Source: an uncultured Armatimonadia bacterium
GTDB taxonomy: Bacteria; Armatimonadota; Armatimonadia; Armatimonadales; Armatimonadaceae
Length of the DNA: 28,344 nt
Direction: 5' to 3'
Assembly (NCBI GenBank): GCA_964646105.1
Contig: CAZYBA010000005.1
Coordinates: 1-28,344 of the forward strand
A program made the position numbers and the translations under genes. Shown one piece after another: positions 17,357 to 22,655 of this stretch; position 1 is the stretch's first letter, and the number at the start of each line of letters is the position of its first letter. Below the pieces are notes generated by a model. That model ran no database searches and was not told the origin of the DNA. It saw only the letters and a list, made by a program, of their open reading frames with translations.

Positions 17357-19774
17357 TTATGCCGCCGCCGGAATGGTGCGTTTCTCGCTTTGGCGTTGCT
17401 CCAGCCGTTGTTGAGCGGTGTCCATCCATGTTTCCGGGTTGTCGCATTCGGTGGGAAAGCGGGCGGATCCGGTGCGGACATCGAGTGCGGGTTGGGTTCC
17501 CGAGGCGAATCGCAGCGGCGCGATATGTTTCAGACTGGCGCGGACCATGTTTTCCCAGTCTTGGTTGCGCGGGGAGCTGCAGTTCGGGACGAGGAGGGCG
17601 AAGTGGTCGGACTCGAGTCGTGCGACAACCGCGTTGTCGGGCAGCGACGGTTTGAGCGTGGGAGCCACCGCCTTCAGGATGGCGTTGCCTGTTTCGTAAC
17701 CGTAGGTCTGGTTGATGGTGCGCAGTTGTGCCAGATCCAGCAGCAGGAGCGTCCAGGTCTCTCCCGGTTGTGCCTGGCGGGCGGTTTGGGTGACGATTTC
17801 GGTGAATCGTTCCCGGTTGGGGAGTTCGGTCAGCAGATCGGTGCCGCGGGTCTGTTTTTTGTTTTCGTCCTCGATGGCATTTTCGATCCCGTGTGCGGCG
17901 AGGGATGCGAGAGCTTCCAGGATGCGCAGGTCGTCGGCTTGGAATCGGGTCTCGCCGGAGCTGTAGAGGTTGATGGTTCCGAGAATTGTGCCGTCTTCGG
18001 TGCGTAGGGGGGCGACTGCGCAGGATTTCAGTGGTGTCCAGGAGTCGGTCGCCGCGGTGAGCAGAAGATCGGCTGAGTCGTAGGTGCCGATTCGTCCTTG
18101 TCCACTCAGGAATGTGTCGGCCGTCGGACCATTCCAGTGATCGACCGTGGCTGCGTGGAAATGTCCGGAGTTGGCGCCGGAGCATTGGGTTACGGAGAGT
18201 GTGGTGCCGTCGCGCAGCAGTATCAGGCACGTTGAGGCGTCGTAGAGTTGGCGTACCGCGTCGGTGACCTTTGCGGCGATGCCGGGGACATTATGTTCTT
18301 CAGTGAGGATGCGGGAGATTTCGTAGACCGCGCGGTATTCGAAGGCGGCGCGGTTGATTTCGTTCCCGATGGTAGGGGTTCTGGAGGGAGACGCGGAGAT
18401 CAAGGCCATGAGGCTGGGGTCTTTGGCCATGGCGGCATGGAATGCTTCGACAACCACCGGGTCGAAGTGGATTCCGGATTGTTGCGTGAGGTAATCGGCG
18501 GCGCGTTGGTGTTCCCAACTTTCGCGGTAGGGGCGATCGGACGTCAGGGCGTCGTAGACATCGGCCACCGCCAGGATGCGTCCTCCGAGGGGGATGTCTT
18601 CGCCGGCGAGGGCGTCCGGGTATCCGGTTCCGTCCCATTTTTCGTGGTGGCTGCGGACGACGCCCATGACGGGGTAGGGAAAATGGACCGGTTGGAGGAT
18701 GCGGGCTCCCATTTCGGCATGGCGTTTGATGACCTCGAACTCTTCGGCGTTCAGGCGTCCCGGTTTGTTGAGGATGTGTTCGGGGATGGCGATTTTTCCG
18801 ATGTCATGGAGTGCTGCGCCGACTTCGATGGCGCGCAATTGGTCTCCTTCGAGCCCGATTTGTTGTGCGATTGCGACCGCTACTTTTTTTACACGTTGGA
18901 TATGTTCTTGTGTGTATCGGTCCTTGGCGTCGATGGCGAGTGCGAATGCTTCGACTGTGGACGCGTACATTTCCTCGATTTCGGCCTGCCGTTGTTGCAG
19001 CTCGGAACGTCGTTGCTCCAGCTCGGCGATGTAGCTTTGTGATTCCTCGAGTCTTCTGGCGTGTTCGTCGTCACGTTCCCGGCGCAGGGTTTGTTCGCGC
19101 AGGATGATGATGGCGACCGGGGTGGCGAGAGCGGCGATGGGAAGGAGTGCGATTGGGTTGGGGTTGACCGCCAGGGTCAGTCTTCCGGCTGCCACGACGG
19201 CTGCTCCGGCGACATAGCCGAAGACCGTTTGGTAGAGGAAGCGGAAGTTGCGAAGGAACGGTTGATCGGAGTGGGTCGCCATTGCGGCGCTGATCAGGCT
19301 GACATGGGTTGCATGGTATACGACCGCGACCGCCAGGGTTGTGGCGACAATCAGGGCGTAGTTGTCCAGCGGGGTTTGTTGGGTCAGTTTGGCGGTGGCG
19401 ACCGAGACTGCGGTTGCGATGATGGAGAAGGCGAGGTTGAAGAGGCGACGTTCGTGATAGGGGCTGGATTTCCGGAATTCCGGGAGTGCTGCCGCGACGA
19501 CAATCCAGATGCAATCCCAGTCCCGTTGTGTCGTGATGAGGAACAGGGTGACAACGAAGCGCAGGGAGACGGTTGTGGCTTGGTTTTTGTCGTTGGTGCT
19601 CCGCAGCGGGACCACAAATCGTCCGGCGACCTGGGTGACCAATGCTCCGAGCAACAGGGTGATTAGTTCGGGTAGGGCGACTGGAACCGACGCATGGAGC
19701 AGGGCGACGGCGCCGAGGAGGGTGGTGGCGACTGCGATTGAGAACGTGTGTTGAAGATATCGGTTGGACGCCAT
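17357..19774 (-). CDS. Membrane-anchored HD-GYP c-di-GMP phosphodiesterase with GAF and degenerate GGDEF domains
   Basis: About 6-7 N-terminal TM helices, coiled coil, intact HD-GYP (H..RV, LHDIGK, HHEKWDGTGYP, AVADVYDALTSDRPY), GAF-like segment, C-terminal D.LT.LPNR ... RLESDHF (GGDEF degenerate). Start set at MASNRY (19774) because the longer TTG start lies inside a hairpin. Confidence 0.9.
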   Translation of the reverse strand: MASNRYLQHTFSIAVATTLLGAVALLHASVPVALPELITLLLGALVTQVAGRFVVPLRSTNDKNQATTVSLRFVVTLFLITTQRDWDCIWIVVAAALPEFRKSSPYHERRLFNLAFSIIATAVSVATAKLTQQTPLDNYALIVATTLAVAVVYHATHVSLISAAMATHSDQPFLRNFRFLYQTVFGYVAGAAVVAAGRLTLAVNPNPIALLPIAALATPVAIIILREQTLRRERDDEHARRLEESQSYIAELEQRRSELQQRQAEIEEMYASTVEAFALAIDAKDRYTQEHIQRVKKVAVAIAQQIGLEGDQLRAIEVGAALHDIGKIAIPEHILNKPGRLNAEEFEVIKRHAEMGARILQPVHFPYPVMGVVRSHHEKWDGTGYPDALAGEDIPLGGRILAVADVYDALTSDRPYRESWEHQRAADYLTQQSGIHFDPVVVEAFHAAMAKDPSLMALISASPSRTPTIGNEINRAAFEYRAVYEISRILTEEHNVPGIAAKVTDAVRQLYDASTCLILLRDGTTLSVTQCSGANSGHFHAATVDHWNGPTADTFLSGQGRIGTYDSADLLLTAATDSWTPLKSCAVAPLRTEDGTILGTINLYSSGETRFQADDLRILEALASLAAHGIENAIEDENKKQTRGTDLLTELPNRERFTEIVTQTARQAQPGETWTLLLLDLAQLRTINQTYGYETGNAILKAVAPTLKPSLPDNAVVARLESDHFALLVPNCSSPRNQDWENMVRASLKHIAPLRFASGTQPALDVRTGSARFPTECDNPETWMDTAQQRLEQRQSEKRTIPAAA

Positions 19775-19840
19775 CTGACCAGTAAATTGTCGGGTCGAGG
19801 GCGGGTTGGGGTACCCGGCAACATCGCGGGTTTTGCGGAA

Positions 19841-19880
19841 CAACAAAACGGCGCCCGCTTGGAATGCCAAGCGGGCGCCG
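19841..19880 (-). terminator. Intrinsic terminator between the small ORF and the HD-GYP gene
   Basis: Perfect 14-bp stem CGGCGCCCGCTTGG/CCAAGCGGGCGCCG (19849-19880, 4-nt loop), followed on the minus strand by TTTTGTTGTT; no U-tract on the plus strand. Confidence 0.85.
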
Positions 19881-19909
19881 AGATTAGGTGTTTATAGGTG
19901 ATGGAAAGG

Positions 19910-19960
19910 TCAACCGACGGTTGAAGTTCCGGTACCCCCGCCCCAATTCAAATCTCGCAT
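19910..19960 (-). CDS. Unannotated 16-aa peptide MRDLNWGGGTGTSTVG
   Basis: AAGGAG Shine-Dalgarno (19967-19972) with 6-nt AATAAA spacer before ATG 19960; TGA at 19910-19912; terminator 30 nt downstream. Too short for the ORF track. Confidence 0.6.
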   Translation of the reverse strand: MRDLNWGGGTGTSTVG

Positions 19961-20145
19961 TTTATTCTCCTTGCTACCTTCCGGAGCTCATAATCGACTC
20001 CGGCTTCCTGTCGCAGGGGCACGAAAAATACCCTGCGTACGCAATATAGATGAGAAACCAATGCCTGTCAATTTTGCTGGGTTTCGTGGCATCCCGCCCG
20101 GCTTCCACCCTCCGGATTCATCGGTGGGCTTCCGATAACTCTCCT

Positions 20146-21411
20146 GTGGAAACCCCGAACTTCAGTCCTGTCCCGTCCGGCGCGACCCGTGCAAATGACA
20201 CCGACGCCTGCCCGCGTGGACCCGGCGACACACTCGAGTTGCTTCCACTCGACAACCCGACACCCTCCCCGCCTCCCCGCCAGCCCGTTCGCGCAGCGCC
20301 CCCAATCCCAAGCCTTGGCGACTCCACGGTCGCTGTCCACAGGGACTGCCCTCTTCATGTCGACGACATTCTCGCCACCGCCGTCCACAATCGCGCGTCC
20401 GACATCCACCTGACTGTCGGCCTGCCCCCCATGGGACGAAAGGACGGCAAACTCGAACCCCTGTTCCCCGGTGTCCTCGAAGAACTCGATACACAACGTC
20501 TCGTCTACGACATCCTCCGGCCGGAACAACTGGAGCGATTCGAACGAACACGCGACATCGATTTTGCATACGAGGTGGCCGGAGTGGGGAGGTTCCGGTG
20601 CAATGTCTTCCGTCAACGAGCGCGCGTCGGTATGGCCGCACGAACCATCGCGACCGATGTCCCTACCCTCGAGTCCTTGGCGATGCCTGCGGTTTTGGCG
20701 GAAATCACCACCAAGCACTCCGGAATCGTCCTGGTCACCGGGCAAACCGGATCGGGAAAATCCACCACAATCGCGGCGATGATCGACGCCATCAACCGCA
20801 CGCAACCGGTCCACATCCTCACCCTCGAGGACCCGGTGGAGTTCATCCATCCGCACAAACGTGCCATGGTGAACCAACGCGAGATCGGACACGACTCCCA
20901 ATCGTTCGAGTCAGCAATCCGGGCCGCCCTCCGGGAAGACCCCGATGTGATTCTTGTCGGGGAAATGCGCGACCGAGAAACCATCGCCGCCGCACTCACC
21001 CTCGCCGAAACAAGACACTTGGTGTTCGGCACCCTCCACACACGAAGCGCCCCCGCGACCGTCGACCGCATCGTCGACGCATTCCCGGCCGACCAACAAG
21101 AACAAATCCGTGTCCAACTTGCCGGCAGTGTCCAAGCCATCGTCGCACAGCAATTGGTTCCCAAACGCGGCGGGGGACGTATTGCCGCGTTGGAGATCAT
21201 GGTGGGAACGTCCGCGGTTCGAAACCTGATCCGCGAAGGAAAGACACACCAGCTTGGCGGAGTCATCGAAACCGGACTGCAGTTCGGAATGCAATCGATG
21301 GACAAGACTCTGGCCGAGATGGTCCGGACCCAGCGCATCGAGCTTGAACACGCACTGCGACGCGCCGCAGATCCGGAAACTGTACAGCGACTGTTGCGCA
21401 ACGCCGCCTGA
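20146..21411 (+). CDS. pilT: Type IV pilus retraction ATPase PilT
   Basis: ASDIHLTVG, Walker A GQTGSGKST, LEDPVEF, QREIG, LREDPDVILVGEMRD, TLHT and AVRNLIRE (PilT-type). Start uncertain (GTG 20146 or ATG 20050). Confidence 0.92.
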   Translation: METPNFSPVPSGATRANDTDACPRGPGDTLELLPLDNPTPSPPPRQPVRAAPPIPSLGDSTVAVHRDCPLHVDDILATAVHNRASDIHLTVGLPPMGRKDGKLEPLFPGVLEELDTQRLVYDILRPEQLERFERTRDIDFAYEVAGVGRFRCNVFRQRARVGMAARTIATDVPTLESLAMPAVLAEITTKHSGIVLVTGQTGSGKSTTIAAMIDAINRTQPVHILTLEDPVEFIHPHKRAMVNQREIGHDSQSFESAIRAALREDPDVILVGEMRDRETIAAALTLAETRHLVFGTLHTRSAPATVDRIVDAFPADQQEQIRVQLAGSVQAIVAQQLVPKRGGGRIAALEIMVGTSAVRNLIREGKTHQLGGVIETGLQFGMQSMDKTLAEMVRTQRIELEHALRRAADPETVQRLLRNAA

Positions 21412-21440
21412 GACCCGAAAGCAATCGACAGGAATCCCCG

Positions 21441-22655
21441 ATGGCCACTTTTGTCTACGATGCTCTCGACCCAATGGGACGCTCGGTTCGCGACCGTATC
21501 GACGCCGAGTCCGAATCCCAGGTCATCAGCCGCCTGCACTCCCAAGGGCTTCACGTTCTCAAGGTTGCCGAGCAACGTCAAACAGGACTGAAGGCGGAAT
21601 CCAGACCCGCCAACGGCAAGGCCAAGTTGACGGCACTGGTGGTCTTTTCACGCCAGTTCGCAACGATGGTGGACGCCGGCCTCTCCGTCATGAAGGCAAT
21701 CGACATTCTGGCTTCGCAAACCAAGGACGTGCCCCTGCGCCATGCGCTCGAACAGGTCAAGCGAGACGTCCAGGAGGGGGGCAGCCTCGCGGATTCCTTG
21801 GCAAAACATCCCGGTTGCTTCTCCCGGCTCTATGTCAACATGATCCGAGCAGCCGAACTGGGAGGCATCCTCGACACAATCCTCGACCGTCTGGCCGGAT
21901 TCCTCGAGAAGGAACAGGAAATCCGACAAAAGGTCAAGGCGTCCCTCACCTACCCGGTCATTGTCCTCGGATTCGCGGTCGCGATGCTCAACGCCATGTT
22001 CTTCTTCGTCCTGCCGACATTCAAGTCGATCTTCGACGAAATGGGTGTCCCGATGCCCCCGATGACCGCGGTGCTCTTCGGAATCTCCGACATCATGCGC
22101 TCGTTCTGGTACATCTTCCTGGGAGTCCCGATCGCCGCAGTGTTTGCGTTCCGGCGCTACCAACGAACTCCGCAGGGAGCACGGACTGTCGACTGGATCA
22201 AGATCAAGGTGCCGATCTTCGGGGACCTCATCCTCAAACTCGCGATCGCACGGTTCGCACGAACGTTTGGAACGCTCCTCGCCTCCGGTGTCCCCATTAT
22301 GCGCACCATGGAAATCATCGGGGAAACCGCCGGAAACGTGCTGGTCAGCGACGCGGTCCAGAAAACCAGGGCGGATATTCGGGACGGCAAACGGCTGAGT
22401 CGGCCGCTGCAGGCAAGCGGACTCTTTCCACCGATGGTCACCCATATGATCGATGTCGGTGAAGAAACCGGACGACTCAGCGAAATGCTGGTCAAGGTGG
22501 CCGACTTTTACGAATCCGAGGTGGACGCGACGGTCAAGGGGCTCACCAGCCTGATCGAACCCATACTCATTGTCTTCCTCGGAGTCGTGGTCGGGTTCAT
22601 CGTGGTCGCCATCATGGCCCCCATGTTCAGCATGGTCTCCAACATCAGCCCGTAG
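21441..22655 (+). CDS. pilC: Type IV pilus/T2SS inner-membrane platform protein (PilC/GspF family)
   Basis: FSRQFATMVDAG, V.EGGSLA..L.KHP..F..LY..M..A.E.GG.L, ..TYP, GVPI, GEETGRL and LIEP motifs. Confidence 0.95.
   Translation: MATFVYDALDPMGRSVRDRIDAESESQVISRLHSQGLHVLKVAEQRQTGLKAESRPANGKAKLTALVVFSRQFATMVDAGLSVMKAIDILASQTKDVPLRHALEQVKRDVQEGGSLADSLAKHPGCFSRLYVNMIRAAELGGILDTILDRLAGFLEKEQEIRQKVKASLTYPVIVLGFAVAMLNAMFFFVLPTFKSIFDEMGVPMPPMTAVLFGISDIMRSFWYIFLGVPIAAVFAFRRYQRTPQGARTVDWIKIKVPIFGDLILKLAIARFARTFGTLLASGVPIMRTMEIIGETAGNVLVSDAVQKTRADIRDGKRLSRPLQASGLFPPMVTHMIDVGEETGRLSEMLVKVADFYESEVDATVKGLTSLIEPILIVFLGVVVGFIVVAIMAPMFSMVSNISP

Follow-up and report, generated by a model that had tools for sequence, protein, structure and literature searches.

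A probable Trp-motif peptide gene is co-inherited with one clade of MASE9-HD-GYP receptors in Armatimonadaceae

Organization of the mini-gene locus

The window analyzed here is a stretch of 28,344 nucleotides (nt) (contig CAZYBA010000005.1, positions 1 to 28,344) from the genome of an uncultured Armatimonadia bacterium of the family Armatimonadaceae (GenBank assembly GCA_964646105.1, here G000; 3.6 Mb, assembly 86% complete). On its minus strand, a 16-codon open reading frame (ORF) with its own promoter, Shine-Dalgarno (SD) sequence and terminator lies directly upstream of a gene for a membrane protein with an HD-GYP domain, called the receptor below. Our comparative analyses showed that this mini-gene is co-inherited with one clade of MASE9-HD-GYP-GAF cyclic di-GMP (c-di-GMP) phosphodiesterases in Armatimonadaceae. 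The features of the locus, in the order of transcription, are as follows.

20066..20071, minus strand: -35 hexamer TTGACA, from the promoter scan; unchanged across all four leaders of the window's genus
20043..20048, minus strand: -10 hexamer TATATT, with a 17-nt spacer to the -35 hexamer; TATAYT is kept in the genus
19961..20036, minus strand: 5' untranslated region (UTR) of about 76 nt with two predicted hairpins; fold z = -1.88, a modest value
19967..19972, minus strand: SD sequence AAGGAG, with a 6-nt spacer to the ATG; GGAG is kept in the congeners G009, G007 and G008 and in a variant strain seen as RNA
19910..19960, minus strand: 16-codon ORF MRDLNWGGGTGTSTVG and stop (ATG 19960-19958, TGA 19912-19910), with the motif [RK]-D-[LI]-x-W-[GS]
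19839..19880, minus strand: intrinsic terminator, a perfect 14-bp stem (12 GC pairs) with a 4-nt loop at 19880-19849, then TTTTGTTGTT
17357..19774, minus strand: receptor of 805 residues with divergent MASE9, HD-GYP, GAF and degenerate GGDEF domains, from domain searches and alignment

The SD sequence, the micro-ORF and the perfect GC stem with its T-tract had been reported in a first-pass annotation of this DNA, and all were confirmed on the minus strand. The distance of 66 nt given there to the HD-GYP start was not reproduced, as the receptor ATG at 19774 lies 74 nt past the terminator stem and 64 nt past the T-tract. A near-consensus sigma-70 promoter, absent from that annotation, was found here: TTGACA-17-TATATT (20071-20043) matches 11 of 12 consensus positions (one such site in the scan, against 0.2 expected in shuffled sequences), and the transcription start is predicted at about 20036-20038. 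The sequence of the 5' UTR is not conserved among congeners, and its predicted fold leaves the SD sequence and start codon unpaired. The second 5' UTR hairpin, CCGGAG...CTCCGG, has the counterpart CCGGGC...GCCCGG in G009, followed by GGTAG in both genomes; judging from these two sequences only, it may be an mRNA-stabilizing 5' structure.

The ORF region itself is unstructured (fold z = +0.65) and encodes a hydrophilic, Gly/Thr/Ser-rich peptide with no transmembrane helix. Its single Trp codon is codon 6 of 16, and there is neither a run of regulatory codons nor an arrest motif beside the stop. A 29-nt spacer separates the stop codon from the terminator stem, whose fold of -33.9 kcal/mol (z = -6.56) was equalled in stability by none of 200 shuffled sequences. 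The promoter scan recognized no sigma-70-like promoter in the 74-nt gap between this stem and the receptor gene. Searched against Rfam 15, the mini-gene leader gave nothing at the gathering score and only chance-level matches at E up to 10; the c-di-GMP-I riboswitch, a by-eye guess for the leader, had no match at either level and was dropped.

The receptor begins with about 250 residues of membrane helices. Its HD motif at residue 323 and HHEKWDGTGYP at residues 376-386 are both intact (HD_5, E = 3e-39), and the GGDEF domain (E = 4e-28) has the degenerate signature ESDHF, so that c-di-GMP hydrolysis is the expected output; no HisKA or HATPase domain is present. Judged by its domains, the receptor probably acts as a phosphodiesterase whose pseudo-cyclase domain is regulatory. 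The architecture MASE9-HD-GYP(-GAF-GGDEF) is listed by Galperin and Chou (bioRxiv 10.1101/2021.11.05.467447), who describe the ligand of MASE9 as unknown and its binding site as probably lying inside the membrane. The window's receptor has the same domain order, and it differs in that its MASE9 copy is too divergent to match the Pfam model (PF20972) and is recognized only through its relatives: nine of the 14 aligned relatives match weakly (best E 1.7e-5), and the alignment shares the family motifs. As a single query, the membrane domain alone reaches only the family, and a search with an alignment (A3) found only Armatimonadota and one new locus. The three close receptor relatives (98, 82 and 69% identity) are syntenic.

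Conservation of the peptide gene

When the leader was compared by blastn with 40 relatives, nine congeners included, no DNA similarity was found. The layout, in contrast to the DNA, is kept upstream of the orthologous receptors in four genomes of the genus: TTGACA-17-TATAYT, GGAG, a start codon, a short ORF and a hairpin. The encoded peptides share M-[RK]-D-[LI]-x-W-[GS].

Genus peptide, G000 (window): MRDLNWGGGTGTSTVG
Genus peptide, G009: MKDIIWGTTTGGSY
Genus peptide, G007: MRDLVWSTNGAG
Genus peptide, G008: MRDLVWSTSGAG

The Trp at position 6 is thus retained throughout these genomes, in agreement with the first-pass proposal of a real peptide gene tied to a membrane HD-GYP receptor. In a further congener, G003 (locus L008, contig C30), a run of N occupies the expected site of the micro-ORF just past GGAGACAAAT, and the preceding promoter and SD sequence match those of G007 and G008.

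Other genera of Armatimonadaceae carry longer ORFs at this place, with endings of the type RN[VI]xW[DE][RK]G or tandem copies of the motif.

Genus g9, G017: MYSKVTQRNIIWDKG
Genus g7, G015: 36 residues, ending in RNVTWDRG
Genus g12, G020: 33 residues, ending in RNVSWERG
Genus g5, G013: 35 residues, ending in RNVSWDRK
Genus g3, G022 and G011: four ENVAW units
Genus g4, G012 and G023: 11-residue head, then (RNITWDRG)x5

Across the ten RNITWDRG units of G012 and G023 there are seven variable nucleotide sites, all of them third positions and all synonymous. Since the changes in these repeat units, like those in the RNA variants described below, are synonymous or preserve the motif, selection acts on the peptide and not on the RNA. 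These comparisons show that the peptide is under purifying selection, its sequence being conserved and its DNA not. The window's peptide is identical at 6 of 12 positions to a unit of the subtilase tails described below and at 5 of 11 to the RNxxWDRG mini-peptides, figures that do not decide its ancestry. A search of 5.8 billion predicted proteins with the repeat peptide as query turned up no annotated protein and no family member, and NCBIfam lacks a model for Trp-motif peptides. We assign the mini-gene to a so far unannotated peptide family whose Trp motif has the core [DN]-[LIVA]-x-W-[GSDET], and we regard it as very probable that the micro-ORF is a real, translated and receptor-linked gene.

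Linkage of the motif to one receptor clade

The motif [DN][LIVA]xW[GSDET] was scored up to 800 nt upstream of the receptor gene in three sets of loci.

Peptide-linked clade, 12 loci: 41 sense matches, in 12 of 12 loci; 1 antisense match
Unrelated MASE9-HD-GYP loci, 36: 1 sense match; 2 antisense matches
Other Armatimonadota MASE9 loci, 26: no sense match in small ORFs; antisense matches not counted

The 36 unrelated loci, used as a control, came from a metagenome scan, contain no close relative and were chosen regardless of peptides; the Trp motif is missing upstream in 34 of them. A hairpin of -16 to -37 kcal/mol stands between the mini-gene and the receptor gene in all 11 peptide-positive loci. 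The equivalent micro-ORF with its hairpin, which the first-pass annotation had expected upstream of homologous receptors, is present in 11/11 loci of the orthologous clade. Genome-wide, the scored motif occurs at chance level, with 41 six-frame matches in G000. The other short matches in that genome (contigs C7, C82 and C457) lie inside longer coding frames and were rejected as chance occurrences. What goes beyond chance is the position, conservation and expression of the Trp motif, not the motif alone.

A maximum-likelihood tree of 48 MASE9 domains contains a 28-member clade (support 100/100) in which no member has the peptide. Every extra paralogue and every copy from another family belongs to this clade, and none of the 11 peptide-linked receptors does. 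The peptide label changes four times on the tree, against 10.1 times for shuffled labels, and none of 500 shuffles gave a value as low. In addition, the ten best-scoring receptors of Armatimonadaceae all have the peptide.

Two further observations concern individual receptors. In G015, the match of the peptide-linked receptor (L112, C69:76012-76849) to the MASE9 profile is split into two parts that lie in different frames, owing to a frameshift, a broken gene or an error of assembly. Upstream of the genus g2 receptor (L118:146-2062(+) in G010; also L079 and L092) lies a gene for a protein with Big_7 and Cu_amine_oxidN1 domains. The last domain of this protein contains GGKVSWVNDTK, close to the peptide unit NVAWVNDTD of G022; this resemblance may be the usual strand motif of that domain.

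Trp-motif tails of secreted subtilases

In genera g3, g4, g9 and g12, the mini-gene is immediately preceded, on the same strand, by a gene for a Peptidase_S8 protein (E 1e-49 to 1e-52). This protein is about 750 residues long, its N-terminus resembles a signal peptide, and its C-terminal tail has up to about nine Trp units (NNLAWGGTTGG, NLIWGGHID, NNLVWGG or DNASWNTGG). These Trp-tail S8 subtilases are located at:

L113:452-2797, minus strand
L114:625-2949, minus strand
L116:350-2575, minus strand
L122:606-1397, minus strand

Similar tails were also found near more distant receptors. The held-out locus L131, from a distant Armatimonadota metagenome-assembled genome, has no mini-gene, and a tail of DNLLWGEG repeats ends shortly before its MASE9 gene. 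Among the 36 unrelated metagenome loci, two contain an S8 gene with a (NSAMWG)n or (STAVWG)n tail directly upstream of a MASE9-HD-GYP-GAF-GGDEF gene (L141:2-664 and 943-1116; L164:3-575), and in L141 a small ORF with an SD sequence and GTG start, carrying NASVMWGS, lies between the S8 and receptor genes. In the window's genus, a pilus-type operon occupies the place of the subtilase. Taken as a whole, the constant pairing is that of the Trp motif with this kind of receptor, the motif occurring as a free peptide, as the tail of a secreted protein, or as both; the window's genus represents the minimal form, with peptide and receptor only.

Transcription of the mini-gene in river samples

Transcription of the locus was followed in river metatranscriptomes. 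In three runs, 41-71% of the sampled words of the 196-nt predicted transcript were present, compared to 10-17% for the surrounding 701-nt stretch. Contigs assembled from these runs were mapped onto 1.3 kb around the mini-gene.

19878..20027, minus strand assigned: stretch seen as RNA in river metatranscriptome contigs

The depth of the RNA contigs reaches 37 on 19878-20027 and is zero on 19300-19871 and 20048-20600, that is, over both flanking genes (1.1 kb), whereas a DNA run from a river metagenome covers the whole stretch evenly at 2-5x. The silence of the flanks in the RNA runs rules out DNA carry-over. The high-coordinate ends of the contigs (20021-20027) lie about 10-15 nt inside the predicted transcription start, and the low-coordinate ends (19878-19902) lie at the terminator stem or just before it. 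Illumina adapters at both contig ends indicate short inserts. The read-1 adapter is at the low-coordinate end in all three runs, which would fit minus-strand RNA in a library of the dUTP (deoxyuridine triphosphate) type, the library type itself not being on record. The RNA of the mini-gene, about 150-190 nt in length, accumulates while the receptor gene is not detectably transcribed in the same samples. This agrees with the first-pass reading of a dedicated, strongly expressed mini-transcript with little read-through, as RNA was found only on 19878-20027 and the depth over the receptor gene was zero. As a transcription unit, the mini-gene is autonomous, has a strong promoter and terminates efficiently.

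Two variants were seen in the RNA. One is a synonymous change, GGT to GGA at 19934 (Gly9). The other is a 16-nt block (19946-19961) with nine changed bases, which reads TTG-AAA-GAC-CTT-ACA (M-K-D-L-T) before the Trp and still has GGAG in front. The block spans codons 1-5 (M-K-D-L-T in place of M-R-D-L-N) between near-identical flanks and represents either a mosaic or a hot spot confined to the N-terminus of the peptide.

Neighbouring genes

On the opposite side of the mini-gene, pilus-type genes are transcribed divergently; they are given as context only.

20050..22655, plus strand: T2SSE-type ATPase and PilC-like (T2SSF) genes, divergent from the mini-gene and syntenic within the genus

A GAF-PAS histidine kinase gene is also transcribed divergently. 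The longest frame of the T2SSE ATPase (20050-21411, plus strand) starts inside the mini-gene promoter; as the products of its relatives are called at 421 and 326 residues, the true start is probably further downstream. According to the first-pass annotation, the peptide, once sensed by the membrane domain of the receptor, would tune these adjacent pilus genes as well as c-di-GMP; the pilus-gene neighbourhood of the peptide/receptor pair is confined to the window's genus.

Alternative explanations

A short Trp-containing ORF and a terminator directly ahead of a regulated gene are also the hallmarks of trpL and tnaC (PMC3902921), and the micro-ORF could accordingly be a cis-acting leader peptide whose translation, by stalling at the Trp codon or by nascent-chain arrest, controls read-through of the terminator. 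The hairpin found at the same place in every peptide-positive locus would suit such a role, and conserved residues around a Trp are typical of arrest peptides as well. However, the stop codon precedes the stem by about 30 nt, so that a terminating ribosome does not reach it, and the unstructured ORF region has one Trp codon and no run of them. No structure competing with the terminator appears in the minimum free energy (MFE) fold, and none is conserved in an alignment of the four leaders (consensus -8.4 kcal/mol). The peptide genes of sister genera, moreover, lie 190-470 nt from the receptor gene and carry 4-5 tandem copies of the motif, which is also repeated in the tails of secreted proteases, where action in cis is impossible. 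We consider a leader of this kind quite unlikely, and the attenuation that the first-pass annotation had offered as its alternative finds no support in the MFE fold or the four-leader alignment, neither of which contains an antiterminator. Still more improbable, in our judgment, is that the transcript is a non-coding or dual-function small RNA in which the ORF is incidental. The RNA is indeed abundant, is about 150-190 nt long and has a strong terminator and a hairpin-rich 5' part. Its nucleotide sequence, however, is unconserved even within the genus, while the SD sequence, start, frame and peptide motif are all conserved and the substitutions are synonymous or motif-preserving; nor does it match any Rfam family.

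The peptide may also be real without being sensed by the receptor, acting instead as a partner, substrate, decoy or inhibitor of the Trp-tail subtilase, or as a secreted or structural product that is co-regulated with c-di-GMP turnover. Four genera do have the mini-gene between the receptor gene and a subtilase gene with a related tail, and linkage alone is silent on who binds whom. Against this, the window's genus has no subtilase at the locus and no homologue in the assembled part of G000, yet it has kept the peptide-receptor pair, the promoter and the terminator; it is the receptor and not the protease that constantly accompanies the motif. This explanation is therefore regarded as unlikely, though less so than the two above.

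Several points weigh against the preferred reading, in which the peptide acts on the receptor. The scored motif was set after eight of the 12 clade loci had been seen (L077, L035, L042 and L131 were found later), and the Armatimonadaceae sample consists of only 32 genomes, whose relatives are not independent. Genus g2 and some g6 and g10 receptors fall outside the no-peptide clade, yet they have no mini-gene. The RNA evidence consists of assembled contigs without strand, and two of the runs, X18 and X20, have near-identical contig sets and hence limited independence. The first-pass proposal that the peptide is processed or exported was not borne out in the window: the peptide lacks a signal peptide, and the rest of the window consists of unrelated housekeeping genes that include neither an exporter nor a protease nor a peptide-modifying enzyme. 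The assembled 86% of G000 contains no subtilase homologue and no Trp-repeat protein. Finally, linkage gives no direction, and the receptor could control the peptide's world instead of sensing it.

Proposed mechanism

With these points considered, we lean slightly towards the peptide being a cognate ligand or modulator of the receptor, a reading suggested by the linkage between the two genes. As no promoter was recognized in the 74-nt gap and a hairpin stands between the genes in every peptide-positive locus, we infer that the receptor is expressed by read-through of the terminator, which would make the peptide message far more abundant than that of the receptor. The MASE9 membrane domain is the most likely target, so that the peptide would control how fast the intact HD-GYP domain hydrolyses c-di-GMP. 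In sister genera, the Trp-repeat tails of the secreted S8 proteins would act like the free peptide on the same receptor clade. As these tails are extracytoplasmic, action on MASE9 from outside or within the membrane is favoured; the free peptides, lacking an export signal, may alternatively act at the cytoplasmic face or on the GAF domain. A more far-reaching proposal, which we put forward tentatively and hold to be rather doubtful, is that [DN]-x-x-W peptides are the missing ligands of a MASE9 sensor domain, so that a ribosomal peptide, supplied as the free product of a mini-gene or cleaved off the multi-copy tail that a secreted subtilase carries, would act directly on a c-di-GMP phosphodiesterase.

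Comparison with known peptide systems

In the AgrD-AgrC and ComC-ComD systems, a tiny, highly expressed peptide gene lies beside the gene of a polytopic membrane receptor, and a hairpin after the peptide gene sets the ratio of the two messages. Here too, a small precursor gene adjoins a membrane receptor gene with a hairpin between them. The receptor, however, is an HD-GYP phosphodiesterase in place of the membrane histidine kinase of Agr and Com. No processing or export gene of the AgrB or ComAB type occurs in the window, only four sister genera have a secreted S8 subtilase alongside, the peptide is leaderless, and the phylum is Armatimonadota. The arrangement thus works like a peptide-receptor cassette, yet without the kinase, the processing/export gene and the leader of Agr and Com.

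Very small products that act on a membrane sensor are also known from the MgrB-PhoQ and SafA-PhoQ pairs, in which membrane-spanning small proteins act on the kinase and, as a rule, are not encoded beside it. Direct modulation of a membrane sensor by a very small product is likewise proposed here, whereas this peptide is hydrophilic, Gly/Thr-rich and has no transmembrane helix. The PptAB-exported ComS/SHP peptides, the multi-core precursors of ribosomally synthesized and post-translationally modified peptides (RiPPs) and the Phr/PapR peptides of the RRNPP family are short precursors that lack a Sec signal and have their active motif either C-terminal or repeated in tandem with basic flanks. The (RNITWDRG)x5 precursors of the sister genera resemble these; in contrast, the window contains no cytoplasmic TPR receptor, importer, exporter or modifying enzyme, and in its genus the motif is N-terminal. 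From tnaC and trpL, the present locus differs by the antiterminator that was not found, by the motif that also occurs in trans in secreted proteins and by the tandem copies that lie far from the receptor gene in sister genera. No peptide partner is mentioned for MASE9 proteins by Galperin and Chou (bioRxiv 10.1101/2021.11.05.467447), and our literature searches (HD-GYP with subtilase, tryptophan and small proteins) returned no paper linking MASE9 or HD-GYP to a peptide or to a Trp-tail subtilase.

Implications

The signals of the sensor domains are unknown for most c-di-GMP enzymes, MASE9 among them. This locus provides a concrete candidate that can be tested at low cost, with a 16-residue peptide that can be synthesized and a receptor that has an intact catalytic domain and a readable activity. 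Our analyses also indicate that gene callers systematically miss a conserved, highly expressed peptide family, and that this Trp-peptide family is tied to secreted proteases carrying the same motif in repeats. If [DN]-x-x-W peptides are indeed MASE9 ligands, peptide signalling would feed directly into second-messenger turnover, with no intervening kinase or transcription factor, in a little-studied phylum, and the window's genus would represent the minimal two-gene form of such a system.

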